Of a stretch of DNA of 64,000 nt, positions 2,741 to 60,300 are shown one piece after another (within the stretch, counting starts at the first letter, position 1; every line of letters begins with the position of its first letter). Under the pieces are notes generated by a model. It was not told where the DNA came from. It did not search any database and worked only from the letters and a program-made list of their open reading frames with translations. The DNA is from Lingula anatina (lineage: Eukaryota; Animalia; Brachiopoda). The stretch spans positions 8,618,001 to 8,682,000 of the forward strand of contig CM120647.1 in assembly GCA_051362555.1 (NCBI GenBank). Direction: 5' to 3'. Both the position numbers and the translations under genes were made by a program.

Positions 2741-3144
2741 TCAGAGGCTGGTCTCCATCCAAAGTAAACTTCTCGCATAAGGACAGTTGTTTGCGCGCCA
2801 TTTCTTCACTTTGGCGGTAACGCTTTCTCGGGGCAGCCCCATTTCGGTCGTCTGCGCGGCAGCTGCTGATTCATTTCTGCGCCCGACTTCGTTGGAACTC
2901 TCTGTCACGTTCAAGTCGTCCGTCGCTTGGGTGCTGGAAAATGGCGCTTGACTCGCAGACGACTCGGAGGAACCGGATGATGACGACAACGAAGCAGACG
3001 ATCTCCCCGAATCTGATTTTACGTCTAGTTGACAAATATCAGTGCCGAACTGTTGGAATTCTATGTTAGGTTGATTTTCTGCGTTTTTTTCAACAAGGAG
3101 GATGTCAAACACACCGTTTGCCTTCACGCAAGCGACATACCTGC
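2741..3144 (-). CDS. IL-1-like gene exon 8 (last trefoil strands, Ser-rich tail, C-terminal ETSL)
   Basis: Acceptor TTTTAG|GC; GRYVACVKANGVFDILLVEKNAENQPNIEF...LLWMETSL-stop. Confidence 0.8.
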
Positions 3145-3316
3145 CTAAAAGTACCAAACATACAAGAATTTTAGAAAGTGGTGAAAGAGCAACGTAAAAT
3201 AACGAAACAGTATACTGAACAAAACGAGACCCCAAACCAGGCAATTTCCTTTCCTGTGCCTTACATATTACTGAAAATTGTCCTCATCTACTGTTCATAT
3301 TTCCCTATCATCATCA

Positions 3317-3368
<52 letters not shown>

Positions 3369-3501
3369 CCTGGGTATTTCAAGGACTCAAATGTACGAAT
3401 GCGATCACGAACCCTCCTGGTCAGAAACAGCCATGGTTTTGCTTCACGAAGATCCAGGTTCTCCAGGTCGCACTTGGATTTGTCCTCCTACAATAAAGTA
3501 T

Positions 3502-3540
<39 letters not shown>

Positions 3541-4107
3541 TTTGTTTGTTTGTTTGTTTATTTTTTTTTTTTTTTGTTTGAAAATCAAATATGACTTTTG
3601 GTGACATGTGACCAAAAATGTACATGGCTAGGTGACAATGGAATTAAGACGGTACAGCAGTGACAGAGCGAAATGACCTTCTGCTGAGCTGGCCACTTTT
3701 ACATTTCTCTTTTACTTCTTTTCGTTTTGTTTGCTTCATCTTTTTAAATTGACTTACGTTTTTCTTGGTTTCTTAATTCTTTTTTTTTTTTTTAATTATT
3801 TTATCGAAGCCATGATGAACGCTTCTCATCTTCCCAAAACTTCTGTTTGGGATTTAAACTTACAAAATCCTTAAAACCGACGGTCTGTTCATTTTCGTCC
3901 ACCGTGACTATTTGGTCTTTTTGAAACATATAGCAAAGGGACACGGTCCTTTCTTTGGTAATTCCGGAGTACTGGTGGACGTCGAAGTCGTCTGAAAGAA
4001 TTAAATGTTATATTTAATATCATCATAAAAGTAATGGGAGTTTATCAAGAGCAATCTTTATTCAAATGCATGGGCATTGTTAATTCATCAACAAACTTGG
4101 ACTGTCC

Positions 4108-4154
<47 letters not shown>

Positions 4155-7039
4155 GTAAGAAGTGTGAGAGAGAGAGAATCACTCACACGACTCATCTCCG
4201 CATTTTAACGGACTGACACGAATATCTTCCTCGAATTTCTCCATGTAGTCGTCAGTTGAAGTACACTGGAATTTGGCCTTTCTCTTCCCCTGTTGACGGA
4301 TATCGTCGATACATATACCGTCAGGAGTCCAGATGCTCCCATGTACTATACTGATCTTTACCTTGGGGAGCAACGTGCTCCTCGGCGTCTTACTACGTCT
4401 TTCTTGCTCGTTTTCACCTGAAGATTAAAGGCACAATAAATAAATAAATAAATAAATAAATAAATGTAAAACCCTAGATTCCCCTGGACAATTAGAATCA
4501 AGCAAATGCTACACAATGTGCGTGTTAAATCTAAAAATAACCGCTCTTACAAAATAAATATACGAAATAAATAAACTCTTTCAAATTGAATAAAAATAAT
4601 GATTTATTAAAGTGTATAAAAAAACAAATTGGACAACGAACAAATCATCAAACCGCTCGACTGCAACTTGTTTTTAGGGACCATTCCCATAACCCTATCG
4701 TACTAGCAGGATCGCTCTATCTCCGAGGGGATTCTAGCTAAATTGCATTTAGTGTTAACGTGCGCGGCAGTTGATAAACCCCATAGCAGCTTTAGTGGAC
4801 ATGACAGACATTTCAGCAGCTTTAACTGAATGCAGTTTAGCGAGAATCCCCTCGGAGTTAGATCGATCCTTCCAGTAGGATGGGTTTATGAGAACCCAGT
4901 CTTATTCATCAACAATGCATGCTTACGCGCAGTTCCAGATTCTGTCATTTCCACTGTGATTTTTCTGTATCTCTGCCCTTTTCTGTAGTTAAGCATACGG
5001 CGGGTGTACTGAAAGTTTGAACAAAAAACAACAATTGATCTTTGAGCATCTCTGGTTGGTATATCCAAGGGCTCATTCCCATTGAAAATTTCGGTCTATG
5101 TAGATCGGCCCAACTCCGCGGGGACTCTCTCTGAGTGCAATTCTACTAGACTCATAGTTTCAATGGGAATGAACTCTTATGAGTGAACTGTGTACCTATC
5201 TGCTACAAAAATAGCTGATATTTCTGAAAGAAAATCTGCACCTTATCTTTTTTAAAAAGGGGTAAAGGACTACTTGCCAGTATAACTTGTTCTTTTTTCA
5301 TCAGGTCCCGCAAGCGGGCGATGACTTCTTCATGAGTCATAGTCGATGTGAAGTCGTTATCAATTGCCAAAATTTGATCGTATTTTCTGAAATAAAAACA
5401 CAACAAATTAAACAAACTATGGGTGAAACTATGGGGGGGGGGGGGGGACTAGAAGTTAAATGGTTTGAGAAAAATGGAACTTAAATGGTGAAGAACACGA
5501 AATGAAAAAGGTAGCCTACTTTCTAATTATTGCGTTTACTTTTATTTTCGAGAAAACATATCCCTTTGAGCGCGTGTTATCACATACTACAGTTCAAATA
5601 GTTCAGAGCAAGATTGCAGAACACACAGAAAGTGTTTAACATTATCTCTTTCGTCTCTTAATAAACCTTGCTTGATAAAAAAGACCTACTTCAATTTCAG
5701 TTTCTTTGCCAAGGTGCCCTTCGTTCCCAAGGAGCGCCGTACGAAATGATTCCAGATGGCCTCACCCGCCTTTCTGTAGCTCTTGATGAGGAGAGCGCCG
5801 TGATTAGTGTCCGCGGCGTCCACCAGGTGGACTCTAGCTTCTTGGTGAAAGTCCAACTGGAAAGATAATTTATGGGAACTTACGTACATTGTTTTAACAG
5901 AGCAAGTCTGTGCGTGGCTGATGTAAATGAGATATACGCGCAATAATTACTACAAAATTCTGAGGTGAGGGGATGGAAGGGGGGGGCGAAAACAAAATGG
6001 CCCCATTATATTACCACGTACCATTTTTAAAAGCACCTGTTACACAGTGGCAGTGACCCTCTTGCGAAGAGTTTTAAGAGTTCCATGAAAACTCATCCTA
6101 TACTATATGTATATACTCATGTGCACCCTCTATAATAGGCACAATTGACATAGAACCAAATGACCGTCTATGTAGGGCCTATGTATCTAAGGACATTTCT
6201 GTGAATATCTTGTGAAAAATCAATCTGTGGCCCTGGTAGAGGGTGGCTTTATGTGTACCGTGTCCAGTAGCAGCAGGGCTACTATGTAGTACTTAGTAGG
6301 AAGTTCGGGGCCATCCATTTTTATCAACGTCATTTTTTTTATCAACAAGTCTACAAAGAGAAGCGTTTTCTCGCACCCTCTCCCCCATTCAGAAATGCAT
6401 TTACCCCCCCCCCCCCCCCACCACCTCCCAGCGCACGGGTTGTAGACTTGTGACAATGGTGATAAAAATGGATGACCCCTTACAAGCACCCGCCACCAGG
6501 GTCGCAGTTATTATTATGCGAACATTTTCGCTGAGGCAGTACAGAGAATAACCGTGAATTTATACGTGAATATCTAATGAAAAATCAACCTGTGAGGGTC
6601 GACTGTGATCCTTACAGTGAACGGCAGAGGCTTGCTGATAATAGATAGATATAAGAGTTTTTAGAGACCTCTGATACTCAGGGGAACTTGACAAGGCCAA
6701 TCCCCTTTTTCTTCCGATCAATTTTCCCCTCTTTACCTTATCACCACCAGCTGGCTGTCTCCCCCTCCCTCCGCAACATAAACCTCCAAACAATCTCGCC
6801 AAACAAGAGGCAGGGAGCGCTGCGTCCGTCTCCTCCACGTGCGCATTCCGGCTGGCAAGCCCTAACTCACGGCGCGTCGGTTCGGACAGCGCTCGCTCCA
6901 ACTGTGGCGGTTGAGGCTGACGCCGCAGATGTCGCTTGATTTGCCGGTTGTTTGTGCCTCGCGCCTGACCCTGTCGTTGACTAAGTGGGGCTACTCCTCT
7001 CCCTGGACGATTTTGATTGCGAGACGCAGATTGGGACAT
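2741..7039 (-). CDS. PDZ + IL-1 beta-trefoil protein (IL-1anc/nIL-1Fm-like cytokine candidate), 8 coding exons, ~513 aa; complement(join(2741-3144,3370-3487,3864-3991,4187-4417,4927-5008,5278-5386,5690-5856,6737-7039))
   Basis: Exons join in one open frame (1542 nt) with consistent intron phases 0,2,0,1,1,0,1; splice sites are GT-AG except one GC-AG. PDZ motif KLKKYDQILAIDNDFTSTMTHEEVIARLR...VILYTRR; IL-1 motif KPWLF...RTFESLKYPGRYVAC...NIEF; no signal peptide. Confidence 0.8.
3307..3364. repeat. (ATC)n(ATT)n microsatellite in the last intron of the IL-1-like gene
   Basis: Direct reading. Confidence 0.9.
3370..3487 (-). CDS. IL-1-like gene exon 7 (beta-trefoil, FES motif)
   Basis: Acceptor TTGTAG|GAG, donor CAG|GTATAT; EDKSKCDLENLDLREAKPWLFLTRRVRDRIRTFESLKYP. 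Confidence 0.8.
3864..3991 (-). CDS. IL-1-like gene exon 6 (beta-trefoil)
   Basis: Acceptor TTTCAG|AC, donor TTT|GTAAGT; YDFDVHQYSGITKERTVSLCYMFQKDQIVTVDENEQTVGFKDF; 128 nt, phase 1-0. Confidence 0.75.
4187..4417 (-). CDS. IL-1-like gene exon 5 (linker and first trefoil strands)
   Basis: Acceptor CTTCAG|GT, donor T|GTGAGT; 231 nt, phase 1-1, open. Confidence 0.75.
4677..4901. mobile_element. MITE family A (fold-back subtype)
   Basis: TTA-GGGACCATTCCC...GAGAACCCAGTC-TTA; internally palindromic; similar to 9794-10030 and 43994-44205. Confidence 0.7.
4927..5008 (-). CDS. IL-1-like gene exon 4 (end of PDZ and linker)
   Basis: Acceptor CTTTCAG|TAC, donor C|GTAAGC; YTRRMLNYRKGQRYRKITVEMTESGTA. 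Confidence 0.7.
5069..5176. mobile_element. Short MITE family A derivative
   Basis: TIR GCTCATTCCCATTGAAA / TTTCAATGGGAATGAAC. Confidence 0.55.
5278..5386 (-). CDS. IL-1-like gene exon 3 (C-terminal half of PDZ), followed by a GC-AG intron
   Basis: KYDQILAIDNDFTSTMTHEEVIARLRDLMKKEQVIL; donor CTG|GCAAGT gives the phase 0 needed by exon 4. Confidence 0.75.
5690..5856 (-). CDS. IL-1-like gene exon 2 (N-terminal half of PDZ)
   Basis: Acceptor TTTCCAG|TTG, donor AA|GTAGGT; LDFHQEARVHLV...GTKGTLAKKLKL. Confidence 0.75.
6737..7039 (-). CDS. IL-1-like gene exon 1A (MSQSASRNQN...SCLARLFGGLCCGGRGRQPAGGDK)
   Basis: ATG at 7039 with A-rich context; phase-0 donor AAG|GTAAAG; paralogous to exon 1B. Confidence 0.75.
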
Positions 7040-7964: not shown

Positions 7965-8672
7965 TATTCCCATAGACCTCATTTCCAATGACACAATCGG
8001 TCTACGTGGATCGACCCAACTCCATCTGCAGGGACTCTCGATGACTGCAATCAGCTTACCTGAGTAACACCCCTCCTCTTGTTTCCAACGCACCTGCATC
8101 ACCAGCTTTTCTGCATTTTACTTAACGTCGGAAGGAGGCGTGTCATTCAGTTAAGCTGGGTCGGAATTGGATCGATCCACGTAGACCGATGGTGTCTATG
8201 GGTGCATTCCCATAGATTTTAGATCGATCCATCCCCGTGGAGAGTCTCACTAGATTATTGTCAGATAATCCGGCTTAAATGTCCGTTCCGCCTACTTCAA
8301 GCTGTATGGAGGTAATTAACTTTCGTACCCGCTCGGCTTACAGCCATTTAGCGTGCACCGTCAAGGAGTTAGGTCGATCTAGTTGGATCGATCTAAACTC
8401 TGGGAATGGGTCTGTGGGAACGGGGTCATACATATAAACACCGGACTACGTGGGGTGGTCTTCGGGGGGTGCAATCAGCTTAACTGGATGACGCGCCTCC
8501 TTGAGTAGCTATAGAGAGTAATTAACAACAATTAACACGAAAGATAATTAACCCTAGCTGCTAAAGGAGGCGTGTCAGACAATTAAGCTAATTCCACTGA
8601 TTGCACTTAGCGAGAATCCCCGCAGAGTTGGGTTGATATATGTAATCCGATGGTGATGTGGGAATGGGGTCT
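7965..8672. mobile_element. Cluster of adjacent family A MITE copies
   Basis: Three related units (~7965-8200, ~8200-8427, ~8441-8672) with GATCGATC, CCCG.GG.GAGTCTC and GGGAATGGGGTC ends. Confidence 0.6.
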
Positions 8673-8919
8673 TAGAATCTTTATTTTGACAGCTTAGGAA
8701 GCGACACGCCTCCCTTGTATTTTCGTTAATATGCTTCAACCGTTCTAAAATTCTGAAACTGGGAATTTTTTCCAATATGGGGAAAACACTTGTAATTAGA
8801 TATCTCGTGACATGTAAGCACTGAATTTCCCAGGCGCTCTGGCTCGATTGCCAATTATAGCAAACGACAACACCCTGTTTATTATTGTAATCGACCTCCC
8901 AAAGCACGTGCGTGGTTCT

Positions 8920-8943: not shown

Positions 8944-9025
8944 TTTACACCTGCATAAAAGGTACGTACCTGATTCATCTCTCACGCGACAAAGTTTCCA
9001 AATAATTTTTTCACACGCTCTCTAA

Positions 9026-9230
9026 GCTCCCATTTCCATTGACTAGATCGATCTACTTTAGATCGACCTAACTCCCTGGGGGTTCACGCTAAATAGCTGT
9101 CAGCCGAGCGTTAATTACCCCCTTACAGCTTGTAGTAGGTGGGACGGACATTTAAGCCGGATTATCTGACAGTAATCTAGTGAGACTCCCCGCGGGGATA
9201 GATCGATCTAAAAGCTCTGGGAATACAGCC
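9026..9230. mobile_element. MITE family A
   Basis: Near-identical to 12600-12814; reverse complement of 54049-54264. Confidence 0.75.
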
Positions 9231-9551
9231 TTAAGTGTCAATCCTCACATAGCACTCAGGATACTTCCGTCACACCACTCCAACCCTTTTCTTTCTTTGT
9301 TGAGCATACACTTTTTAGATATCGCGTATCCTCTTTTGCTCTTCGAGTTTTTTTTTAATTGCACTCACAGACCTTATCTAGATTGAACAATACAAGCTCG
9401 TGACGCGTCCCGTAAGTTAAAGACATGCGTGTACCCAGGTTTCAGTGAAATACGCATGAACAGATCCTATAAAACGCACCTGTAAAACGCTTTAATGATG
9501 AATAAAGTTATATTAGTGTAATTAATAAAGACGTGGACTTCCATGACGAAA

Positions 9552-9793: not shown

Positions 9794-10030
9794 GGGACTG
9801 TTCCCAGACCCTACCGCACTAACTGCGGATCGATCTATCTCCGAGGGGATTCTCGCTTAATTGCAATCATCTTAAGCGGCTTAGATGTCAGTCACGCCTG
9901 CTGAAGCTGCTAGGGGGGAATTAATTATCGTGTAGCACGTAAGCCGCTTAAACTGAATGCAATATAGCCAGAAATCCCTCGGAGATGGATCGATCCTGTT
10001 AGATCGTTCAAGGTATGGGAACCCAGTCCT
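9794..10030. mobile_element. MITE family A (fold-back subtype)
   Basis: GGGACTGTTCCCAGACC...GGTATGGGAACCCAGTCC. Confidence 0.7.
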
Positions 10031-10162: not shown

Positions 10163-10453
10163 CTGATAATTACGCTTGAAACCCCAAATTTTGCGCGAAG
10201 TGAAGAAATCATAAACCCAATCAAGACAACTTGGAGACGTAACGAAATCCACCTCATCATCCTGCTGACAAAATCCCAACTCTATTCCCGTTCTTCTGGA
10301 AACCACGCGTTCCAGTTGCGGTTGTTTTTGTCTTCTAAGGTGTCGATGGACTTGGAGTTCTCTTTTTGAGCGATGCAGTCTCGTGGATCCCGTGGGTGGG
10401 CGGTTTTCTTGCTGTTGCCCGACAGTTATTTCTGAAATCTTACTCATGTTCAT
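10163..10453 (-). CDS. IL-1-like gene alternative first exon 1B (MNMSKISE...RHLRRQKQPQLER...GFKRNYQ)
   Basis: Shares RHLRRQ.Q(P)PQLER..S..T..ELG and SCL with exon 1A; 97 codons ending in phase-0 donor CAG|GTGAGA, compatible with exon 2. Confidence 0.7.
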
Positions 10454-10886: not shown

Positions 10887-11402
10887 CGCACAAATTATGG
10901 ACTGCGTTATTTCGAAATTGCCGTAAATTGAACTCTAAAATTTCCCTTTGATGGGGGAAAATTACCTTTTTAACGCGACGTAAATGGAAAAATTCACTTT
11001 TTTTTTTATCGACGTGAAAGATGCATATAAAGCCGGTGCTTGGGTCAAATTATTGTTTTATTCATATAAAGTTTTATGCGTCCGAAGTTCAACCAAATGT
11101 CAGTACAGTATTTCAAATGCCCATTTCAATAATTTCTACGTAAAGACACTGCAAAATGTAGTTATATCGTTAGCGAAAAAATGGTATTTGTACAGATGTT
11201 TTTTTTTCTGTGTACTTAATGTGTTTTACTGATTGGAGGCAAATTAAGCAGGTAAAATTTTAGACCAGTTATACACACACACACACACACAAGGCTTAGT
11301 TGACTAGGATTTCCATGGGAGTGCTGTTACAGGGCCCTCTGACACCCCCTAAACCCGCCACTGTTCCTGATAGGGTAAGATGTACTCATGTAAAGTTGGT
11401 AA

Positions 11403-11747
11403 TTAAAGCAATAATAACTCTTCGTTTCGGCCAAAATATGAATTTTCCTGGAGTAAACAACAATTTTCCCATGCTTACCAATAGTTAATGAATCCATTTT
11501 TATATTCAAAGTTAGTCCCTGGTTTTTTTCTAAAAAGTTGGGTTTTTTGTTAAAATCTCTTAAGAGATTTTAACAGAGTATAGACATCAATGGAGGTCAC
11601 GTGGTCTAAAGACAAGTTCAAATATCAGAATAAAAGCTATAACTGCTGTTTTTGTGGTAAAACAGAATATATTATATTTCTATGAGTTATTCACAAGGTT
11701 TTTATTGTGAAATATAGGTCTCATACAAAGAGTTATTATGCCTTTAA
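11403..11747. mobile_element. MITE family B
   Basis: Near-identical to 251-597. Confidence 0.8.
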
Positions 11748-11831
11748 ATTGTCAGCCAGGGAACGTCTTTTTTTTTTTTTTTTTTTTTGTACGTGTGTGT
11801 GTGTGTAGCCAGGAGTTTGAAAGAGCAGATC

Positions 11832-12599: not shown

Positions 12600-12814
12600 G
12601 GACCCCCATTTCCAGAGATTAGATCGATCTACTTTAGATTGACTTAACTCCCTGGGGGTTCACGCTAAATAGCTATCAGCCGGGCGGACACGAAAGTTAA
12701 TTACCCCCTTACAGCTTGTAGCAGGCGGGACGGACATTTAAGCCGGATTATCTGACAGTATTAGCGAGACTCCCCGTGGGGATAGATCGATCTAAAAGCT
12801 CTGGGAATACAGCC
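12600..12814. mobile_element. MITE family A
   Basis: Near-identical to 9026-9230. Confidence 0.75.
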
Positions 12815-13097
12815 TAAGGAAATACTGGTCCAAATTATTAGAATAAAAATAACAAACAATGGCTTGTAACTGAACAAATAAATTAGAGAATTTTCTTGGC
12901 ATATGGCATGGATCAGTATTAACATTCCAGACTTCTGGAAAAAATGCATAACATATGACAACAAAATGTAATATTTTCTACTGTCTAATAGCGTGGAAAC
13001 CATCAGAAATCATTAGATCTCATTCCCAATTAAACTTATGTCTTACATATATCAATCCAACTCAAAGGAGACTCTTGCTGAATGCAATCAGTTTAAC

Positions 13098-16000
13098 AAA
13101 CTAGAGGATCAGAGAGGCGATACCGCCTCCGAATATTGTACCACCAGCTGGAGCAAGCGCATTCGTATAGACCCCCACATACACAAAATAAGGGACACAG
13201 CCACCAGTTTTGTGCTTGACAAGCTGTAAAAATGCAATCAACAAGAATTTTTAAACTATTGCAAAAAACATATATGGTACAATCAAATTTAAGTTCTTCG
13301 TAAGGTAGGTCAAGGGTCAATTTCAAGGTCACAGTAAATTGCCAGTATATGACTTCATATTCAAGTTCAAGAATAACTATGAACCTATCTCTGTCAAGTT
13401 TGAAGTTAAAAGAGAAAAAAAGTTCAGTTCATGATAAAAAGTAGGTCAAAGGTCAATTTCAAGGTCACACTTATATTGCCAGTATAGGACTTCCTATTCA
13501 AGTTTAATAATAACTATGGACCTATCTCTGTCAGTTTTGGAGATAAAACAAAAGCAAAATTTGCAAAATTCAGTTCATGGTGAAAAGTAGGTCAAAGGTC
13601 AATTTCAAGGTCACATTTAGATTGCCAGTATATGACTTTCTATTCAAGTTCAATAGTAACGATGGACCTATCTCTGCCAGTTTTGGAGATAAAAGGAAAG
13701 CAAAATTTGCAAAGTTCAGTTCATGGTGAAAAGTAGGTCAAAGGTCAATATTAAGGTCACACTTATATTGCCAGTATATGACTTCCTATTCAAGTTCAAT
13801 AGTAACTATGGACCCATCTCTGCTATTTTGGAGATATAAGGGACTAAATGTTATTATTTTGGAGTTACCATAATGTGCCTTAAATTTCGTACAGAAAAAA
13901 TTAATTAAAATAAAGAAAATGTCATTTTGGTCAAAATTCTTGAAATAGGAGGTGCTCTGAAGGTTCAGAAGTTCAAGTTTGATGAAATAATGTCATTTTT
14001 GAACACAAGTTGTCTGCTTTGCCAAGCCTTATGTTTTATTTTTCCAGAGTTCAAAATTTATTATCCATTACCGTACTGCACATTTTGCTTTTACCACCAA
14101 TATGTACTTTTTGATACAGCGTAACTCGAAAACCGTATGGAATACAAAAAAACCGAGACCACCTCCAGTATTGGGCTTTACATGCAAAGCTCAGTTCATG
14201 GTGAAAAGTAGGTCAAAGGTCAATTTTAAGGTCACATTTATATTGCCAGTATATGACTTCCTATTCAAGTTCAATAGTAACTATGGACCTATCTCTGCCA
14301 GTTTTGGAGATAAAAGGGAAGCAAAATTTGCAAAGTTCAGTTCATGGTGAAAAGTAGGTCAAAGGTCAATTTTAAGGTCACATTTAGATTGCCAGTATAT
14401 GACTTCCTATTCAAGTTCAATAGTAACGATGGACCTATCTCTGCCAGTTTTGGAGATAAAAGGAAAGCAAAATTTGCAAAGTTCAGTTCATGGTGAAAAG
14501 TAGGTCAAAGGTCAATATTAAGGTCACATTTATATTGCCAGTATATGACTTCCTATTCAAGTTCAATAGTAACTATGGACCCATCTCTGCTATTTTGGAG
14601 ATATAAGGGACTAAATGTTATTATTTTGGAGTTACCATAATGTGCCTTAAATTTCGTACAGAAAAAATTAATTAAAATAAAGAAAATGTCATTTTGGTCA
14701 AAATTCTTGAAATAGGAGGTGCTCTGAAGTTTCAGAAGTTCAAGTTTGATGAAATAATGTCATTTTTGAACACAAGTTGTCTGCTTTGCCAAGCCTTATG
14801 TTTTATTTTTCCAGAGTTCAAAATTTATTATCCATTACCGTACTGCACATTTTGCTTTTACCACCAATATGTACTTTTTGATACAGCGTAACTCGAAAAC
14901 CGTATGGAATACAAAAAAACTGAGACCACCTCCAGTATTGGGCTTTACATGCAAAGTTCAGTTCATGGTGAAAAGTAGGTCAAAGGTCAATTTTAAGGTC
15001 ACATTTATATTGCCAGTATATGACTTCCTATTCAAGTTCAATAGTAACTATGGACCTATCTCTGCCAGTTTTGGAGATAAAAGGGAAGCAAAATTTGCAA
15101 AGTTCAGTTCATGGTGAAAAGTAGGTCAAAGGTCAATTTTAAGGTCACATTTAGATTGCCAGTATATGACTTCCTATTCAAGTTCAATAGTAACTATGGA
15201 CCTATCTCTGCCAGTTTTGGAGATAAAACGGAAGCAAATTTTGCAAAGTTCAGTTTATGGTGAAAAGTAGGTCAAAGGTCAATTTTAAGGTCACATTTAG
15301 ATTGCCAGTATATGACTTCCTATTCAAGTTCAATAGTAACTACGGACCTATCTCAGCCAGTTTTGGAGATAAAAGGAAAGCAAAATTTGCAAAGTTCAGT
15401 TTATGGTGAAAAGTAGGTCAAAGGTCAATTTTAAGGTCACATATAGATTGCCAGTATATGACTTCCTATTCAAGTTCAATAGTAACTATGGGCCTATCTC
15501 TGCCAGTTTTGGAGATAAAAGGGAAGAAAAATTTGCAAAGTTCAGTTCATGGTGAAAAGTAGGTCAAAGGTCAATTTTAAGGTCACATATAGATTGCCAG
15601 TATATGACTTCCTATCCAACTTCAATAGTAACTATAGACCTATCTCTGCCAGTTTTGGAGATATAAGGGACTAAATGCTATAATTTTGGAGTTACCATAA
15701 TGTGCCTTAAATTTCGTACAGAAAAAATTAATTAAAATAAAGAAAATGTCTTTTTGGTCAAAATTCTTGAAATAGGAGGTGCTCTGAAGTTTCAGAAGTT
15801 CAAATTTGATGAAATTATGTCATTTTTGAACACAAGTTTTCTGCTTTGCCAAGCCTAATGTTTTATTTTTCCAGAGTTCAAAATTTATTATCCATTACCG
15901 TACTGCACATTTTGCTTTTACCACCAATATGTACTTTTTGATACAGCGTAACTCGAAAACCGTATGGAATACAAAAAAACCGAGACCACCTCCAGTGTTG

Positions 16001-16661
16001 GGCTTTACATGCTCTACAAAATGCAAAAAAGAATGGGTCTCTAGCATTAACGGTTCCCGAATTAGAGACAGTTTTCAGTTTCGGTATCTTATGGCCGCTA
16101 CTCCCGTGAAAATGCACCGATTGACCCCAAATTCATGGAGATGAAAGATGACCTGAAGGGTAACACTTTCCAATAATATTATTGGTTAAGTCTGTGTGGT
16201 GTCTGAATAACAGGGCAAAAAAATTTTTTTTCGTAAAAAATTTCATTTTTTTGAAAATTTTGGCCCATTTGACCTTGAAGTAAAGGTCAAAGGTCAAATC
16301 CAAGGGTATATTTGAAATCTACACATATGACTTTTGGAAAGCCGTCTATAGAAATTTTTCCCATAACTCCTTCCGTAGGGTAGATAATTAGCATTTAATT
16401 TTGCCATTTTTAGACAAGGGTGCATTGCAATGAGTGCCACACCCAGACCCCAATACCGACAAAGCCCAAATTTTACGTGGAACGAGTTGAGATTATAGGT
16501 GACCTAAATCCATGAGATGGGTATGGGGGGCCTTACCGTCTAGGAGGAGAAGCGGTAACGGTAGCCGTCCGGCGGAACCGGCGGAGCCGGCGGAGCCGGC
16601 GGAACGATCCGGACGAGACCGAAACCATGTGTACCGCCAGCGCTAACGCTGGTGGTACAAT
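13098..16661 (-). mobile_element. Helentron/DINE-1-type non-autonomous element with internal 146-bp tandem arrays
   Basis: Subterminal inverted repeat TGTACCACCAGC (13137) / GCTGGTGGTACA (16648); palindrome at 16631-16658 next to a (CCGGCGGAG)n microsatellite; hairpin GAGGCG-ATAC-CGCCTC and CTAG at the other end; no TSD. Confidence 0.7.
13305..15680. repeat. 146-bp tandem repeat, 12 units in blocks of 4+3+5, each block followed by a ~350-bp spacer (767-bp higher-order repeat)
   Basis: GTAGGTCAA(A/G)GGTCA recurs at 13305, 13441, 13587, 13733, 14208, 14354, 14500, 14975, 15121, 15267, 15413, 15559. Confidence 0.95.
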
Positions 16662-16788: not shown

Positions 16789-17545
16789 TCATCGTTTCTT
16801 TTTCTTGGACTTGCTTTTGGGTGCCTCTTCCTTTGGAGCAGCTTCATCTTTATCTGTTTCTATTATTCTCTCTCTACACATGTTATCAAATGTCCTCAGT
16901 AATTCCAGTGTGGTCAAATTATTCGTCTTGAATAGCACCTTTAGTCCATCATCTGAAACAACAGCATATCTGTCATGTACCATTTCATTAAACCAATGAT
17001 TTATATTGTGCCAAAGTAGGCTTCAAGTCTTGTCTTAAAATTCAAATTTCAGTTTTCAGAATTTTTCTCTTCATTTTCATAAAACTGTTGCCTGATATAC
17101 TTGTGAAATTTATACTTTAAAGTTCAAATAATTTAAAGGGATAATAACTCTTCGTATGAGATCTATATTTCCCAATAAAAACATTGTGAATAACTCATAG
17201 AAATATAATATATTCTCTTTTACCACAAAAACGGCAGTTATAACTATTATTCTGATATCTGAGCTTGTCTTTAGACCACGTGACGTCCATTGATAGCTAT
17301 ACTCTTCTAAAATCTCTTAAGAGATTTTAACAAAAACCAAACTTTTTAGAAAAAAAAACAGGGACTAACTTTGAATGTAAAAATGGATTCATTAACCATT
17401 GGTAAGTATGGGAAAATTGTTGTTTACTCCAGGAAAATTCATTTTTTGGCCAAAACGAAGAGTTATTATCACTTTAAGTATACATAAGTGAGTATTAAGT
17501 AAAGCTTCAGCCTTTCAGTTATAACACTGAATGAATTATTATCGA

Positions 17546-17585
<40 letters not shown>

Positions 17586-17974
17586 CTTACTAAATATGAC
17601 ATTCATATTGGGATCGGACCTGTCCGATTTCACATTCACTTTTAGGATGCAGTTAACATTGGTAACTCTCACGTTGTTGCTGTACAGATGGAACAGTGCA
17701 TCTCTAAAAACAAAAGAAAAGAGACATAAGAATATTAAATAAATTTGGATATAAGTATCCAATAAGACGCGATCAAAACGGCACATTGACTCTGTTGGCA
17801 AGTGGAAGCCGTGGACCGTGGGGGGGGGGGTAAAGGTAACTGCAAACATACCAATTAATTAGCTCACCTGCATGACCTAACATTCGTGCCAAATGGATCA
17901 AAAGAAAATTCTATTCGTTTCACCGGCGATATATTTAACTTTGTGACCAAACTAGCGAGTTGATAGCTAGACAT
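16789..17974 (-). CDS. MRPL53: Mitochondrial large-subunit ribosomal protein mL53, 127 aa; complement(join(16789-16952,17591-17703,17868-17974))
   Basis: Spliced frame MSSYQLASLVTKLNISPVKRIEFSFDPFGTNVRSCRDALFHLYSNNVRVTNVNCILKVNVKSDRSDPNMNVIFNDGLKVLFKTNNLTTLELLRTF...; family motifs PVK.I...F.PF, TN..C, DG......LT.LE.L; canonical GT-AG sites, phases 2 and 1. Confidence 0.9.
17133..17477. mobile_element. MITE family B (inverted) in MRPL53 intron 2
   Basis: Reverse complement of 251-597; TTAA flanks. Confidence 0.8.
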
Positions 17975-18300
17975 TCGCGACCCTACGCTCCATGCTCGGG
18001 ATCCCGACAGCGCCATTTTGTTATATGATTTGTCTCGCAGTCTCTGATTGGTTTAGTTTTCAAGGGGATGCTGATATAAGTGTATTAAAGTTGCATCATC
18101 TATAAAATTTATTGCATTTTTTAACTTTCTAATTTATTTTTTGCTTTAAATAATATTTTAATGTTGATTATTATGACATTTCCTTTAAGAAAAACGGCAA
18201 AAAGTCTTTATAATATTGGGATGTGTGTTATCTTGGCTGCCCTCGTTGTAAATTATCCAATAGTAACCAAACTCTCATTCTCGATTGGAATAAAAAATTG
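17975..18300. promoter_or_regulatory. Bidirectional promoter shared by MRPL53 and CLK
   Basis: Head-to-head arrangement; YY1 core CGCCATTTT at 18011-18019; CCAAT/ATTGG boxes at ~18047, ~18257 and ~18284. Confidence 0.55.
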
Positions 18301-20021: not shown

Positions 20022-23000
20022 GTAGATTTTTTTTCCACAAGCTGAAAGTGACGTAAAAAGGAAATGATTTAGAATTTATTGCCAATTAGTTGCAGTGATT
20101 ACTCATGAAATTCAACTTAAATGAATTAATGAATGTTTTGTTAGTAATACATATGAAGGTCAATTCAAATGTTTTGAAAAAAAAGTTGTCTTTGTGTCGG
20201 GAAGTTAAATTTTATGAGTACTAATAATGAAATTAAATGAAATACAATATAAAAAAAATGGGTAACTTTACAATTTCTTTTAATCCTCCTCATCCTGTCC
20301 TCAGTGAGGACCGATACAACAGAAGAAATCATTACGACAGAACCAGGTCAAGGTCAAGGACTCGCTCCAGAGATCGCTCACGTTCAAGGGACCGTAGGGA
20401 CAGAAGAGATCGGGACAGAGACAGGCATCGGTACGACTACGATGATACAGATTACGTCAGTAGGCATTCACACCACAGTCGCAGACACAGGCGGAAGAGG
20501 AATCAGAGACACAGACGAAGGTCAAGGTCATATTCCGAAACTTCCTCTGCCACCTCTAACACGACGCGGGTGAGTACCTGTTCATGGGATGGGTTTAATG
20601 TAGAAGAGATTCTTAAAGGGGAAAATTTAAAAGAAATATTATGGCTGGCAGTGGAGAAAATTCTTATCATTTAATTGGAATGGGCCTGTATTTGGACCAA
20701 CATGATCATGTCTTATTTGAGATTTGAAAATGTTACTTGCATGGGTCTGTTTAAGTTTTTTTAAAAAGGGAAAATAATGTACAGATATTCGTACGCCCAC
20801 TTAAAGTGCCTGTCCACTTTTAACTGAAACTATAAAAAAGAAAATAAAGCAGGTTTGTTGAAAGATTATTTATAAGAGATGGTCCTTCTGATATTTGATG
20901 AGAATTTCTTCAGTTCTGCCTGACGTGTGGTATATTAGCCCTCAAAGTGAAGGCTTACTTGACTGGATATTAAAGACTGGATTCACACCTAAGACCACTT
21001 TTTATTTATTGACTTATTTACTTGTCTTATTTATCAAGTTTGGATAAACTGTTTAAAGGGGAAAAGTCTAAAATTAAAAAAAAAGAAATTTAGGGTAGTA
21101 ATTTTAGAATAAATAAAGATTTGATCACAATGCAGATTCATCGTCTGTAGAAAATATCTTGAATGTACTTGCTGTTTCATATGCATGATGTGAAGTCCAT
21201 AGTTTGGCATGCAATTCTACCACAAGCTTTCTTCAAATTAAATACATTCTCTTTTCATGTAGTCAATGAAAAACTGGCAATCATTTGTCACTAAATTCTT
21301 ACAATCTCTATTAGATTTAACATCTGAAAAATCAGACTCTTTTTAATGTATTCTTTTTTAAGTAGAAATATTATTATTCTCAGATGAATCTTGTGGAGTA
21401 AATTTTTATGTGGTATTTGCTGAACATGATATGAACATGAACAAAATACCCCTTGTAAAAGAGTTATGAAATATCTACTGTATTTCTTTTAAAATGGAAG
21501 TGTGAGCATGGACATTTGATAGTCAGATTAATAAGACAAAATTAAATAAATTTATTTTAGGCCAGATATTAAAAAACTCTCAGATCAATGCCAAACAGCT
21601 GACTTTGCATTTTTTGCTATTTGGTTTTAGCCATCTAAGCTTATTAGCTTAAATGCTTGTAAAAGACTTTTTGTAAAATAGGCACTTGTTGCTAGTGCAG
21701 TATCTTGCTACTTGTACAATACAATATTTATCTCCACAGCTGAGACCAGCGACTGTGTGGTAGGTACATCCCCTAAAGGGAGAAATGAAATTGATTTTAT
21801 TCCTAAGGGATATACATATGTAGGTTGATTCATGTAGGATTTGGTTATCATTTTAGATTTAAAAAAATAAGGTAGGCATATTTAGATTTTAGGGATTTTC
21901 TGATAGTTTTTTCCCCAGTTGTTTAGTTAATATTTGCTTACTTACAAAAAAGGAAAAAAAAAGAGAGAGAGAGAGAGAGAAGTGAGGGGGTGGATCACAT
22001 CTGATTAGCTGTAACTCTCATATATGCCACTAGAAGGCAGCATGGTATATTTCATGAGTATTCCTTTGTACCACCAGATGTCACTGTGTTCTCCAGCTTT
22101 ATACTAACAAGGTGATTTTGTGCCCCAGCTGAGTTCAGGAGAATAATTCATGTAGCAATATATGCGATGATTGTATCAGATGGAAAGCAGAGCAGTTATA
22201 AAGCAGATATTAAGTCATAATGTGTATGACCTTTTTTTCACATTTGAGTTTACAGATTGAAAAAGAAATGTAACTAGATGAATTGAAGAAAAGATAATGA
22301 TTAGTGGCAATGCTGTAATTACTCACTTTATGGAGCAATAATTATCCATTATATTATTTGGGGCAAATATAAAGCCATCCAGTTTATTTTTAGTTATTAG
22401 CAAATTAAGTTTTTTCAAGAGTTTCCATTTGAAGAGAAATTATCGTAAAAGTACATTTGCAAAGGTCCACATGTTGAAGATAATTGAATTTCCTCCAAGG
22501 CTGATTTCTCCAGATTTATTGAGAATCAAAAGTGAAATTATTGCTGTTTCCAACAGGGAATTCTAACAGACTGGAGTTTCCCCAAGGTTGAAATTGAATT
22601 CATCAAGAAGTGTACTTTTAAATCCCCGGGGATAAGTTTTACAAGATAAATCAATCCCGAAAATAGGTCTGGTCCCAGTTTCACAAAAAAAAAAAAAAAA
22701 AAAAAAAAAAGGTGAAGTCAGTTCCCTGGCTTAGTTGACTAGGATTTCCTTGAGAGTGCTGTTACACTGTTCTTGATAGGGTAAGGTATGCTTATGTGAC
22801 CATGTTCCCTTGCTAATTAAGTTCTTAGCCAGGGAACTTGAACTTTTACACCAACTATCAAGACTTCTTCACTTCTAAGATAAATCCAAAGTTACTGTAG
22901 TCCACTGAAATAAAGTAAATATTAGAGTGAGACATAAATCGTGATTGATTTTCTGGTTATGAAATGGACACAATACTCAAAATAGACTCAAATTGGGTCT

Positions 23001-33080: not shown

Positions 33081-36000
33081 TGCCCTTCTTCCTGAGTTAA
33101 TTCTTTCCACACAGCTGTTGGTGTATATCAAGACATTTCTATTACCCTGACCAATTTATTACAGTTTACACCCTGTGTTTAGGAGCTGAATTTTGGGTGA
33201 TTTTTGGCAATGATGATTCATAATGTTACCATGACCAATTAGTCCCTTTCGGTTACCATGACCAATTTATCATACAAATTCTGTCTTTGGCAACCGAATT
33301 TTGGTCTGATTTTTGCATTGAGCATTCAAAACATGCCATTTTTGTATCAATTACACTTTTCTTTTGGCAGCTGGAATTTGCTGTTTTGACCATGATCATT
33401 AAAAGCATCTGGTTTTTGTAAGCTTTGACACACAGGGTGCCTTTGCTCCATTGCCATTTACTTGATACAACCTACACACACATGCAAAGCTGGAACTGTG
33501 TGTAACTTGATCTCTCCCAGCTATTTATATCTTTTTCAACCCCATAGCTTCAGCACAGCTCTGTTTTCTAGTTCAGGCCTGGCGTCATTTTTGTGGTGAA
33601 ATATGTAGAGAGTTCCTTCTGTTTTCTCGAAGGATAGAGAGAGAAGAGAAGGGGTTCTGTGTACTGGGAAAAATTACAGGAAGTTTCAGATTGTTCAGTG
33701 ACCTAGTCATATGCTTGATATATGTGAGTCAAGTGCCATGGATTTGTTGGTGTAGTACACCTGGATTCTACTCAGCTGATGTGCCATGCTGGGTTTAATA
33801 TAAAGAGAGAGCTGTCAAGAATAAGGGTTCTGTTTTCTATTTTTATGGTACAAGCAGTTTCAGATTCTCAACATCTAACTGTTGAATAACATTGTGCCTG
33901 GTAGTCTGAATAAGGCTGATGAGTCTACCTGGATGTACCTGTTAAAAGCATAGACTTGATTTCGGTGTTTTGGGGAAATAAGAGGGGAGGATAGGTTTAA
34001 TGGGTTACAGACAAGTCCAGATGTTTTCAGTTGGTCATGGACTTTCCATTAACTTCACCAGTTTGGGGCCAGGCACCATGGATTTGGCCACAAAGTCTAC
34101 CTGAGAGTAACTTCAGCAGGCTTTTCGTAAAGAAAGATCAAGACAGGCAGACATTATAATTAAAGGCTACAGGCAGTTCCAGATGAACACTGTTTGTTTT
34201 TGCACTGAACACAGGGGGCCTGGTACTGTGTATAAAGCATTGGGGTCTACCTGAGTTTATATAAACAGAGGAGGTGCATAGGTGGAAAGGCACATAGCTG
34301 CCTGCCTGGCATAGTTTGTGAGTGGAACAGGAGCCGTTTTATCACCTACATACATTGAGGCCCACATTGGCTGGGAGAGCATAGATAACACTGACAGATC
34401 TGCAGTGTTCCTGCTGAGCTGGAGGAGCCAATGAGGAGGGAAGATCCAGCCAGACGTCAGTCGGGGAGGTTCTGTAATTGGCAGCCGAGGATTGGGTGGC
34501 GGCTGGAGCGGTGAGATTGTAATGTCAGACGCGAAGAAGAACCTGGGAGAAGTCACCTCAGAGGCAAGCAATCTAGCGGACATCTTCTCCTTCTCTGTCT
34601 TCTTCTTCTGGGTCTTCTAAGTGCTGTATTTGTCTAACTAGTAGAAGTAGTCAGAGAGTAGGCCTTTACTACTGAAAGCTGCTGTTATAGTCTTGCTGCT
34701 CTGCTAACCCATATATAGGGTGGTTCATAGATTCTCACTCGATTGGTGCGTTACAACCTTGGTGTTGATCTGGCCCACAATGCCATTGGGTGCCACAGGG
34801 GGGTACGGAGCCTCCACCCTGGGGTCATCGTACAGCCGATTGCTCCTCGATCTGGAACCGTACCGACCATACTCTAGTGTGAGTGGCAGCCTCAGTACAG
34901 CCAACACAGGCCCAGGGGTTCCACCCAGTCTGCCGTATCAGCCCGTTAGTGCCATCACAGCAGCGACCTCGGGAGGGGGAAGTTCCACCAGCTCTGCCAT
35001 CGCGATCCCAAGTACGGGAACGCGCAGCGGCAACTACATCCCTCTCAGTTCAAGCGCTATAGGTGGCACTAGCGGTGCCTCTAGTTATCGTTCAAAGAGG
35101 GCTAACCGTCCTAGAATGGCGGCTTCAAATTCAGAGCCCCGGGTTGTTCGGCCAAAACAGTACGCTAAAAATTATACCACGGCTGTCCCTTCCACTAGAG
35201 TAGAGGAGAAAGAGAAGCGCAAGGTAAGCTTGCAGTGTTCTTCCTCTTTTCTGCTCGGAAGGACTCTGTATTGTGGTGTGAAACCAATATATGTAGTTTA
35301 CCAACATAACAGTCCTTGCCAAACAGATGAGTCAATTTTGAGGTTAAATCCATATCCCAATTTAAGCTAGGTTTTGACAACAAATATGAGATTCATTGCC
35401 TATTTTATACATTTAAGTTTTTGGGATGTTTTCCAGATTTTGTACACAAATTTTACTCATTTTTACGCTAATTCCATGCAGTTTCTCTTCAATTTTTTAG
35501 CCTGAATTCTATGCAGTTTCTACTTTTTCCACAGTTTTCAACAGGTTTGACAAATGACTCCTAATTTTACTCTGATGGCCTGTTGTTTATATTATACAAA
35601 ATAGATCTATTCATAGGGAGAACGATACTTCAAGCAACAGCAGATAATGCTGCTTTGTTCACTTAACATGCTTTCAAGCTTAAAACACAAAACTGGCACA
35701 TCTGCTTGGAAAGTATACTGTATGTGAAAAAAAAAAAAGATGGATAAGTAGTAGTAGGACATACGGTATGCCTGTCATACTGACCCAAGCAAGAAGCCTG
35801 ATATTTTGCTGTATTCTGATACCAACAATATAAAATGCCCTTTATATGAAAGATACAGCAATCTCTCCACAACTGTGGCTAAAGATAGCACTTAGCTGGA
35901 CATTGGTGCTGAAACCCAACTGCCCAGTAGGGGCCCAGAGGGTCAGTTTCTTTAAAATGTCTTAAGTCAGTTTTTGGAGCTGAAGTCTTAGCCAACTTAG

Positions 36001-56737: not shown

Positions 56738-57343
56738 TATTTGTTCTGTTATTATCATTTAAATAAAGGGCAGAGGATCAATTTCCTTAAGTGATAACTT
56801 GATTTTTAACATTTAGAATATATTCCTTAATGTGTTTATAATTTTAAACTAACAAATTTTTTCTAATGAAGTATACAAGATAAAGATCTTCATGTAATAT
56901 ATCTGACTTAACAAAAGCCTTTCTGTGCATTATTACTTTCTGCTTTTTGTCTGTGCATTTGACAGCTTTGCTGCCTTGTCATGTCATATATTTGTATATA
57001 TAAATATAATCCACTTCCCCTTCCAGAACTTGGCTGGTCTCAACCTTGTGATGTGTGGAGTATAGGCTGCATTCTCTTTGAGCTGTACACAGGGTTTACA
57101 CTATTCCAGGTGAGATTGTGCTAGTGGTGCTTGTTGATTGTGTAAGTTGTGTCTTATGATTGTGTTAGTTGTGCCTTGTGGTTAATTTATTCTGTGTGAA
57201 GTGCATTTGGTACATTTATTTTTTTGGGCCAGTCTGTTTTAGTAATATTGGATAATGGATGTGTATTTTTACGAAATATTTCGAAATCTGCAGCTCTGTT
57301 TGATAAAAAAGATCAAACTTTCGGATCACAACAAAATCTTAAT

Positions 57344-57390
<47 letters not shown>

Positions 57391-60300
57391 CAATTCCAGA
57401 CACATGACAACAGAGAGCATTTAGCAATGATGGAGAGGATACTGGGTTCCTTGCCCTACAGAATGACCAAGAAGACAAAGTAAGTGTTGGCAGCTCTTGG
57501 GACAAAGGCACTAGGTTGAAAAAACAGGACTTTTTTTACACTCAAACAGAGACAGCTTTGTTTTGTTGGTTACAGTGATAGTTTTTTTTTCTAACTTCGG
57601 AATTTTTTAGCACTGTTATTACATTGTTTTGCCAGATGCCATCTTTCGGGGCGAACTGAACATTTAATTGACTAGCCAACTAACTAACAGACAGGCTGGC
57701 TAACTTTTAGACTGGCACCAATAGACAGAGGTGTTAACTGATGGACTGACAAACAGGCTAGCTAACTTTTGGACTGATTGCTTATGGGTTAAATGAACAA
57801 CTGACAAAAATACAGACAAATTATTGAAAAAAAAAAACTGGCAAAAATTGTTTTTCGTCTTATATTTCTGATGCTTCCTTTAACACATATTTCATATTTC
57901 AAATGATATTTTGTTGCTACATTTACCTCTGCTTTTGTTTTGCTTTGAACTTTGTGAGCTTTTGGACAGCCAGTGTTCATTGACTGTTTGTAATGGTTAC
58001 GTTTGAATGTGACCTCTGATATTTTTTGTCCGACTAATACTGCATTTGTTCTCCAGTCACATTGTTTAAAGATGTTCTATTAATTCTTCAGCCGTTAACA
58101 ATGTTTGGGATCATAACAAGCTTAACGAGAAAAGGAACTTTGTGTGGCAAATGTTTGTTTTGCTGTGTTGGGCTTATTGGTTTAAATTAGGAGATTTTAA
58201 AGAAATATTCTCTCAGACACCTATTTCAGATTCATTTGCCATGTCTTAATAGTAGATTTTTAAAATTCTGTATGAGATTCTGTGCATAAACATTTTCTTG
58301 ACTCTTTATCTGGATTTACAATGCTATGACTTAAGAGCAAATTGATGAAAAAGGAATTATTTCTCTACATATTTTTCCTATCTATGAGGCATGCCATGTT
58401 ATCAAGATCTGTTAAAATTTGTACCTGGTGTGAAAAACAGATTTAGACTTTGAAACAGTTATATTTTTATTGTCATCGCTCAAAAAAAAATGATGAAAAA
58501 TGACCAAATTCCACCATCCACTTTAAGTTAATTCTGGAGAAGTGTCATTTTAGTTATAACATTGTAAATCCTGTAATAAAAGTAAATTTCATATAATCTT
58601 TTATATAATAATAAATTGGTTAAGTTTTGAATTTGAAAGGACCTGCATGCTTGTTGGACAGGGATTTCCCGTGAGTGGGACTGGGGGGGGGGGACTTTCT
58701 GTGGGAAATAATAGAAGATTTTTTTTCTCTTGGGGGTAGGGAGGGGGTATGATAAAACCTGTGCACAGGGAGTAATATAAATGGGCATTGCCAAATAACT
58801 TGCATTAGAGCACACTTATATAATAAGCTGCATCAATGAAGATTTGGTTGTGCTTTTTACTATGTCAGTTATGCTTTAATGACTTACAGCAGATTGAAAA
58901 AAAAAAAAAGATTGTCAATTAGTTGATGTTTAAACGGGCTTCTCTTGTGCTTTTTGCAGCTCTGAACTTTTTTTTTTTTTTTTTTTTTTAGCGGCTAATC
59001 TGTTACATTGAATGACCTTTGGTGGTTTTGTTAACTTGATAGAAGCATTCGATATTTAACAGCATAAATACATATATATATATGTGGAAGGTTGAAAAGG
59101 AAAATACTTAATTTTTCCGTTGTTTGTCATTTTGCACCCATAGTATGTTTCATTTGAAAAGGTTTAAGTTTCATTTATTTAATACTTCGATTACTAGCTT
59201 TTTTCCAATTCAGTGCAAGTTTTAGCCAAATTGAAAAGGCAAAGGCATGTTATAGATAGAAAGCTCTTAACATTAGGTACCTTGATACATAACCACCCAA
59301 GTAGTTTTGTACTTTAAGCTGTTGCTAAGGCTATAGTGCTGCCACCCTGAGGCTGTTGCTGAGGCTATAGTGCTGCCACCTTTAGTTGGGATCCAACAGT
59401 TTTAAGCATCTTGATTCAAGATTATTCCAGGGATTTTGGAATGAAAGTCTTTCAAGGTGTCTTCTGTACATTTATTCTATTTGTAGTACAAATATGTTCT
59501 GTTCATGTCGCAGATAAATCTGTAAAACTTAGCAGACTATAATCTGAGTGGACTATTTCTTCAATCAGTTTGTATGCTCTATGTTCAATTCAGACTGGAC
59601 TATTTCTGGCACGGACGGTTAGAATGGGATCATAATTCTCCCGGGGGCCGTTACGTTCGACAAACATGCAGGGCCTTATATGTAAGTAAGCTGCCTCCCT
59701 CACACCCATCGTGTGTGTGTGCGTGCATGCATGCACATTCAGAGGCACGTGCAGTGTGAGGTATGCATGCTCCAGTTGGATGGGAAAGATATATATCCCA
59801 GAACCCTTAGCTAGGTCAAGCTGGGACCTGTAAGGGTCAGAGTTCTGTTTTTACATTGACAGGCCTTCTATATCAATCTTTGCTCATGCTAACATATTGT
59901 AACTTTGGTATTGAATTAATAAAATTATTGAAATTTTTATGAAGAAAAGAAGAGAGGAAATTTTGTTTAAGGTGCTTGATTTTGACATAGAAAATTATTT
60001 TTGAAAAAAAAAATCCTTTTTTGACTTGAGATCTTTGTTACTCCCAAGTTAACAAATATACAAGACCACTTTTGCATTGCTTAAGTTTTATTTTACTCTC
60101 TTCAAAAGTCAATCGTATATCTGAAAAAAAATAAAAAGTGTGGGAGGGAGGTGGGATTAACGGAAACAAAAAAAAAAAAAACAACATGGTATAAAGTGAG
60201 CAATGTAATCACCAGTTAGCCTGATCAGTGGTCCAACAGAACTGCTGCCTACACAGCTCCAGGTATTAATCTTGCATGACTGCTTGCTCACCCCACATTT

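Follow-up and report, generated by a model that had tools for sequence, protein, structure and literature searches.

LOC106166605 of Lingula anatina, catalogued as the IL-1anc gene LanaIL-1.1: exon structure, alternative first exons and divergence from RefSeq

A 64,000-nucleotide stretch of the Lingula anatina genome (GenBank assembly GCA_051362555.1, contig CM120647.1, positions 8,618,001 to 8,682,000; hereafter the window) carries on its minus strand an eight-exon gene which is almost certainly LOC106166605, the locus published as LanaIL-1.1. Its product combines a predicted PDZ domain with a predicted beta-trefoil, and very probably belongs to IL-1anc, the class recently proposed as ancestral in the IL-1 cytokine family. 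The exons, joined by script with ends set from the sequence, make up 1542 nucleotides in a single frame of 513 residues, the sole stop being terminal. The frame is not a product of chance, because the joined protein is collinear with RefSeq XP_013400691.1 (isoform X1 of LOC106166605, L. anatina, 512 residues), 492 of 513 positions being identical, with one gap. The join had been proposed in a first-pass annotation of this DNA, a model's reading of the letters alone, and is confirmed; the same annotation expected the protein to be filed only as uncharacterised or as a PDZ protein, and its RefSeq name is indeed 'uncharacterized protein LOC106166605'. Exon 5, used as query against longer proteins, retrieved isoform X2 of the same locus (88% identical), the only match among three candidates. 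The cluster of this entry has two members, XP_013400692.1 (X2, 507 residues) and XP_013400691.1 (X1), both carrying the same exon join; the eight-exon form described here is X1.

LOC106166605 is entered, as XP_013400692.1, under the name LanaIL-1.1 in Table S2 of Fontenla-Iglesias et al. 2026 (PMC13736523), the PDZ domain being scored 'y', the signal-peptide column left empty, and a bipartite nuclear localisation signal (NLS) predicted from residue 23. A trefoil model of LanaIL-1.1 obtained with ESMFold is part of Extended Data Fig. 6, according to its legend. XP_013400691 was not found in the text of seven supplements, in which X2 only is entered, and a term search of the main text of the bioRxiv version found no mention of Lingula. 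Since isoform X2 is already published as LanaIL-1.1, the locus adds neither a new gene nor a new lineage to the IL-1anc catalogue; the first-pass annotation named the right class, but the novelty it implied does not hold. The layout it gave for IL-1anc and for teleost nIL-1Fm, PDZ plus IL-1 domain, matches PMC13736523 and the lumpfish paper PMC7144542.

Six of the seven introns are of the GT-AG type, the third is GC-AG, and intron phases run 0, 2, 0, 1, 1, 0, 1. An in-frame stop immediately precedes the ATG of the first coding exon of X1 (exon 1b), and the motifs KYDQILAID, VILYTRR, PWLF, TFES...RYVAC and NIEF, picked out at first reading, are all found in the joined protein. The locus reaches past the 2741-7039 interval, as a second first exon (exon 1a), identified by tblastn with residues 1-96 of isoform X2 (89.6% identity), lies farther upstream (Table 1). 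Exons 1a and 1b are paralogous, the first exon of a single gene having been duplicated. Their protein local alignment scores 99, whereas shuffles average 25.8 and none of 2000 reaches this value; the nucleotide score is 137, the maximum of 300 shuffles being 114. The NLS predicted in PMC13736523 falls in the part of the protein encoded by exon 1a, and the basic stretch which holds it is the core common to both exons. The idea that exon 1a heads the decayed remains of a complete tandem copy was rejected: none of 24 region-exon scores exceeds the shuffle maximum when remnants of exons 2-8 are sought between, upstream or downstream of the first exons. A kB-like decamer found 430 nucleotides upstream of exon 1a was set aside as evidence, seven such decamers occurring in the window.

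The absence of a signal peptide, noted at first reading, is borne out. N-termini are basic and hydrophilic in both isoforms, with 13 lysines or arginines in the first 60 residues; the highest 11-residue hydropathy value in the first 40 residues is -0.56 for exon 1b and 0.14 for exon 1a, and by hydropathy no signal-peptide-like stretch is present in either.

Transcription was monitored in four (X1, X4, X7 and X8) of nine same-species raw-read RNA runs, 6-26% of each being mapped and junctions listed if supported by at least 3 reads. The gene is transcribed at low level from the minus strand. Exon 8 is the deepest exon, with bin depths of 8.6 in X4, 4.9 in X7 and 4.5 in X8; in run X1, depth is zero in the bins over exons 5-8. 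The best bins of X4 reach 1.72 in exon 1a and 2.1 in exon 1b. In the same run nearly all first mates map to the plus strand, which under the usual stranded library corresponds to minus-strand RNA, and five of them start at 2532, inside the probable 3' untranslated region (UTR). Four X4 reads with four different starts join exon 3 to exon 4 (5278 to 5006), the two letters between being explained by a variant at 5007 which gives Cys194, as in RefSeq. The GC donor of intron 3 is thus confirmed, and nearby GT donors were rejected because the reads use the GC donor. Of the junctions to be checked according to the first-pass annotation, this one is confirmed; in the 6-26% of each run that was mapped, the remaining six of the seven were unlisted at the three-read threshold, and both exon-1 joins unseen. 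It is the two RefSeq models and the fit of phases that link the PDZ exons to the exon encoding the FES motif.

That exons 2-4 encode a PDZ domain is supported by structure searches. All ten structure rows returned by the ESM Atlas for residues 100-225 are PDZ-containing clusters (template modelling, TM, scores 0.62-0.70), alignments starting at residues 100-103; the top three feature matches are unnamed. Exon 3 alone matches Pfam PDZ with E=0.0036 (18.1 bits, under the cut-off of 23.2). Single-exon Pfam searches gave nothing for five of the eight exons, and the matches obtained with exons 2 and 8 were rejected as noise. For the whole of isoform X1, the only families found at E<=1 are PDZ (residues 146-184) and IL1 (360-398), in the order typical of IL-1anc. 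A search of PDB sequences at E<=10 returned six matches, none significant, three of which are ZO-1 PDZ domains (E=0.44-1.6) and two IL-18 (E=0.54-0.7); both IL-18 alignments cover the FES region, and the FES of the Lingula protein is aligned to the FES of IL-18.

The prediction of a beta-trefoil for exons 5-8 is well supported. The four top feature matches of the ESM Atlas for residues 235-420 are IL-18 clusters (0.88-0.89), and structure matches over about 150 residues include IL-1 (TM 0.73), IL-18 (0.69) and IL-33 (0.65), the alignments to IL-1 and IL-18 beginning at residues 241-246. Several weak but concordant signals, together with the published assignment, argue for a trefoil of the IL-1 type, to which independent structural support is modest. 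The first-pass annotation had inferred an IL-1 ligand; IL-18 and IL-1 do rank first in the Atlas, closely followed by trefoils of the ricin or AbfB type.

A number of results weigh against the assignment to IL-1anc, and against the cytokine role that would go with it. Both Pfam families score under their cut-offs (PDZ, E 0.074, 13.9 bits vs. 23.2; IL1, PF00340, E 0.11, 12.7 bits vs. 25). Atlas feature scores for residues 235-420 are all below 0.9, a range in which they are leads only; bacterial or unassigned AbfB/ricin-type trefoils fill six of the ten structure rows (TM 0.62-0.68), and confidence in the Atlas model is low (pLDDT 0.51, pTM 0.38). AlphaFold2, run without an alignment, gave pLDDT values of 31.6 for the trefoil stretch and 31.4 for the whole of X1, too low to confirm 12 strands; these models failed because no alignment was at hand, no true relative having been found outside Lingula. 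None was retrieved by the exon 5 query against longer proteins described above, by residues 100-420 (one match among 1597), or by residues 240-412 against shorter proteins (0 of 6). With phmmer, 1.84 billion representatives yielded three matches, the protein itself and two which were rejected. Of these, P0003 is an MBG-repeat protein of bacterial type, with a score that adds up from 16 stretches, none of them above 10.4 bits, and P0004 is a repetitive protein matched through the serine-rich tail. No read places PDZ exons and FES exon on one transcript. The strict IL-1 signature is absent, and for no IL-1anc protein are ligand-receptor binding and pro-inflammatory activity directly shown in PMC13736523.

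The FES motif (residues 373-375) lies late in the trefoil, 140 residues from the C-terminus. The first ten positions of the IL-1 signature match, as the first-pass annotation had reported; the strict pattern, whose tail is taken here as quoted in PMC7144542, fails because of a V for L/I, a C for T, and a D at the final hydrophobic position. The ten-position prefix is real but no more than suggestive. Shuffling the protein 20,000 times yields it in 110 cases, and in the unspliced window, read in six frames (approximately 128,000 codons), it occurs once, elsewhere. Of the classical IL-1 standards, the protein fails both the full signature and the Pfam IL1 cut-off. Conserved phasing, relative to FES, of the two introns in the central trefoil is a criterion for IL-1anc; here these introns lie 76 and 33 codons before FES, and their phases are 1 and 0, which would fit those of human IL1B.

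Relative to RefSeq, the sequence found here is probably that of a divergent allele or haplotype. All 21 differences from XP_013400691.1 fall in the first 297 residues (exons 1-5), and none in the last 216 (exons 6-8), an uneven spread (Fisher p ~1e-5) which was noticed after the fact. Exon 5 is the most divergent, 9 of 77 positions being different, and three substitutions cannot be reached by a single base change, requiring two or three. In reads from other animals mapped to exons 7-8 (2868-3412), 7 of 10 listed variants change a residue, among them R371C, two residues before FES (best 40 of 125 variant rows). The mosaic pattern would be explained most simply by recombination of two divergent haplotypes, or by a switch of haplotype in one of the assemblies; a hidden paralog or balancing selection may also account for it. 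A broader picture, in which several of these features are tied together, is possible and looks improbable. The two duplicated promoter/first-exon units would swap a localisation-bearing N-terminus on an unchanged PDZ-trefoil core, as a switch between nuclear and cytoplasmic isoforms; the 5' half, including the first trefoil strands, would exist as allelic lineages that have diverged deeply and are maintained by balancing selection from pathogens; and the protein, having no aspartate in the linker and a long acidic, serine-rich tail, would mature independently of caspases, or else be kept inactive by the tail.

The mode of action which best fits these data, to which a probability of about 0.55 is given as a whole, is that of an IL-1alpha-like alarm cytokine. 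The protein, with no signal-peptide-like stretch, would be kept inside the cell. As suggested by other IL-1anc proteins, it may be inducible by microbes, leave the cell by the non-classical route of lytic cell death, and signal via an Ig-TIR receptor. It would act at full length, or after trimming at the basic linker by a protease other than a caspase. According to PMC13736523, bacteria, flagellin or cGAMP raise the expression of IL-1anc genes in urchin, lamprey and anemone, and two urchin proteins reach the nucleus via their N-terminal region.

An IL-1beta-like route, in which a caspase cut of an inactive precursor frees the trefoil, which leaves through gasdermin pores, is rather unlikely. 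Caspase-1-type maturation in the linker is, judging from the residues present, unlikely because aspartate is missing from residues 197-252, the region between PDZ and trefoil, and no site of the kind placed just before the trefoil in caspase-matured IL-1beta-type precursors is seen. Aspartates are found in the PDZ region and at position 253, yet D253 lies inside the region aligned from residues 241-246 to IL-1 and IL-18 structures. Caspase cleavage has a precedent in urchin SpurIL-1.3, where both human caspase-1 and urchin CaspX cleave at Asp184, the long fragment retaining the trefoil (PMC13736523); but this is the only IL-1anc for which a caspase product is described, and it has no PDZ domain.

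Just as doubtful is a role as receptor antagonist or dampener, of the kind reported in fish. According to PMC7144542, the nIL-1F protein, in which PDZ and IL-1 domains are arranged alike, is an inhibitor of IL-1beta responses and a ligand of the type 1 receptor in grass carp, and a second Lingula gene of Table S2, LanaIL-1.2, could serve as agonist. Antagonism in fish is however directed to a classical IL-1beta, and IL-1anc genes are the only ones given for Lingula in that table.

A little less probable still is a role inside the cell, as PDZ scaffold or as regulator in the nucleus; the trefoil would then be either derived from IL-1 or convergent, and the protein would not act as a cytokine outside the cell. 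The missing signal peptide, the two basic N-termini, the long low-complexity tail, and the close scores of trefoils other than IL-1 in structure searches would all suit it, and a non-immune signalling role is raised as an alternative in PMC13736523 itself; yet IL-18 and IL-1 come first by Atlas features, Pfam and PDB sequence search, FES is kept, and members of the IL-1anc family are induced in immune responses in the same paper. A wrong join, placing PDZ and trefoil exons on different transcripts or merging first exons of two genes, is hardly credible: reads cover one junction of seven, loci with two IL-1 genes under one LOC are noted in PMC13736523, and the 5' and 3' halves diverge from RefSeq to different extents, but both RefSeq isoforms have the same join, all phases fit, and no second copy of exons 2-8 lies near the first exons.

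Coordinates of the gene and of the other features of the window are given in Table 1. A serine/alanine-rich tail of about 95 residues follows the trefoil, 22 of the last 93 residues being serines. The 5' neighbour is an MRPL53-like gene, two exons of which match Pfam MRP_L53 below the cut-off (E 0.0074 and 0.1). Head-to-head with it lies a divergent multi-exon kinase gene, identified by Pkinase fragments (E 1e-5 to 2e-4) and featuring an RS-rich exon and an 11-residue motif. This motif is presumably of the CLK/LAMMER type. A serine/glycine-rich open frame of 220 codons, which ends at a likely splice donor, probably belongs to the kinase gene as a further 5' exon. Repeats are of three kinds. 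A tandem array with a unit of approximately 146 bp, seen by eye, is broken by repeated longer segments. Copies of a short dispersed repeat, which has GATCGATC cores and inverted ends, are numerous; by eye it resembles miniature inverted-repeat transposable elements (MITEs), and several of its copies draw many RNA reads from other loci. Another dispersed repeat, rich in AT, flanks the locus.

Table 1. Features of the 64,000-nucleotide window (positions in the window; exons of the LOC106166605 gene in 5' to 3' order, residues numbered on the 513-residue protein, identity relative to XP_013400691.1)
Feature	Position	Strand	Description
Exon 1a	10163-10447	minus	95 residues, own ATG, upstream stop, phase-0 GT donor; N-terminus of isoform X2 (LanaIL-1.1)
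Exon 1b	7039-6737	minus	101 residues, alternative first coding exon, N-terminus of isoform X1; 97/101 identical
Exon 2	5856-5690	minus	residues 102-156, first half of predicted PDZ; 52/55 identical
Exon 3	5386-5278	minus	residues 157-193, PDZ core; Pfam PDZ and ZO-1 PDZ matches
Intron 3	5277-5009	minus	GC-AG; junction reads
Exon 4	5008-4927	minus	residues 194-220, end of PDZ and start of linker; 25/27 identical
Exon 5	4417-4187	minus	residues 221-297, basic linker free of Asp, then first predicted trefoil strands; 68/77 identical
Exon 6	3991-3864	minus	residues 298-340, mid-trefoil, 128 nucleotides between phase-1 and phase-0 introns; 43/43 identical
Exon 7	3487-3370	minus	residues 341-379, FES motif at 3391-3383; 39/39 identical
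Exon 8, coding part	3144-2741	minus	residues 380-513, last trefoil strands to ~414, tail, stop; 134/134 identical
Probable 3' UTR	2740-2330	minus	candidate polyadenylation hexamers at 2595, 2526, 2335 (motif scan)
MRPL53-like gene	~16790-17975	minus	three exons
Kinase gene	~20200-62900	plus	multi-exon
RS-rich exon of kinase gene	20237-20674	plus	
Probable 5' exon of kinase gene	34708-35370	plus	Ser/Gly-rich open frame
11-residue motif of kinase gene	57343-57480	plus	
Tandem array	13290-16010		~146-bp unit
Element end related to the array	~16270-16640		by eye
MITE-like repeat copies	60-170, 4680-4900, 5080-5190, 7970-8680, 9020-9240, 9820-10030, 12600-12820		
AT-rich dispersed repeat	~230-640, 11390-11750, 17150-17480 (inverted)		

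The IL-1 family was long thought to be restricted to vertebrates, and the published IL-1anc class moves it back to the cnidarian-bilaterian ancestor; a gene of this kind can be recovered by reading raw sequence. Studies of LanaIL-1.1 may take into account that two N-terminal isoforms exist, one of which is given in PMC13736523, that divergence between alleles reaches 12% in exon 5, that one GC-AG intron is supported by reads, and that the linker is devoid of a caspase site.

Compared with the RefSeq locus of LanaIL-1.1, the window has the same exon join, exons 6-8 100% identical, and both first exons; LanaIL-1.1 as published in PMC13736523 is the X2 form, the eight-exon form being X1. As in the IL-1anc proteins SpurIL-1.1, SpurIL-1.2, PmaxIL-1 and NvecIL-1, a disordered basic N-terminus is followed by a predicted PDZ domain and by a predicted trefoil with (F/L)ES, and a signal peptide is missing. 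The 140 residues that separate FES from the end of the Lingula protein set it apart from those IL-1anc rows of Table S2 whose sequences are given in full, in which the motif seemed, by eye, much nearer to the end. Microsynteny with GCC2, ESD, EIF2A, TRAF3 or IL-1R is described in PMC13736523 for cnidarians and ambulacrarians, and is no requirement for membership. The neighbours here are the MRPL53-like and CLK-like genes, and none of the five markers was found in the window, annotated non-exhaustively and extending 2.7 kb on the 3' side of the gene. The teleost nIL-1F and nIL-1Fm proteins, known from lumpfish (PMC7144542), share the PDZ plus IL-1 layout; fish nIL-1F has the full IL-1 signature, predicted caspase-1 and thrombin sites and a report of antagonism, whereas the strict pattern is absent from the Lingula protein. 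Vertebrate IL-18, IL-1beta and IL-33 (PF00340, PF15095) have no PDZ domain, and their sequence similarity to the Lingula protein, which lacks aspartate in the linker, is below significance; yet its closest counterparts by structure and features are found among them (TM 0.65-0.73), the FES region being aligned with that of IL-18.

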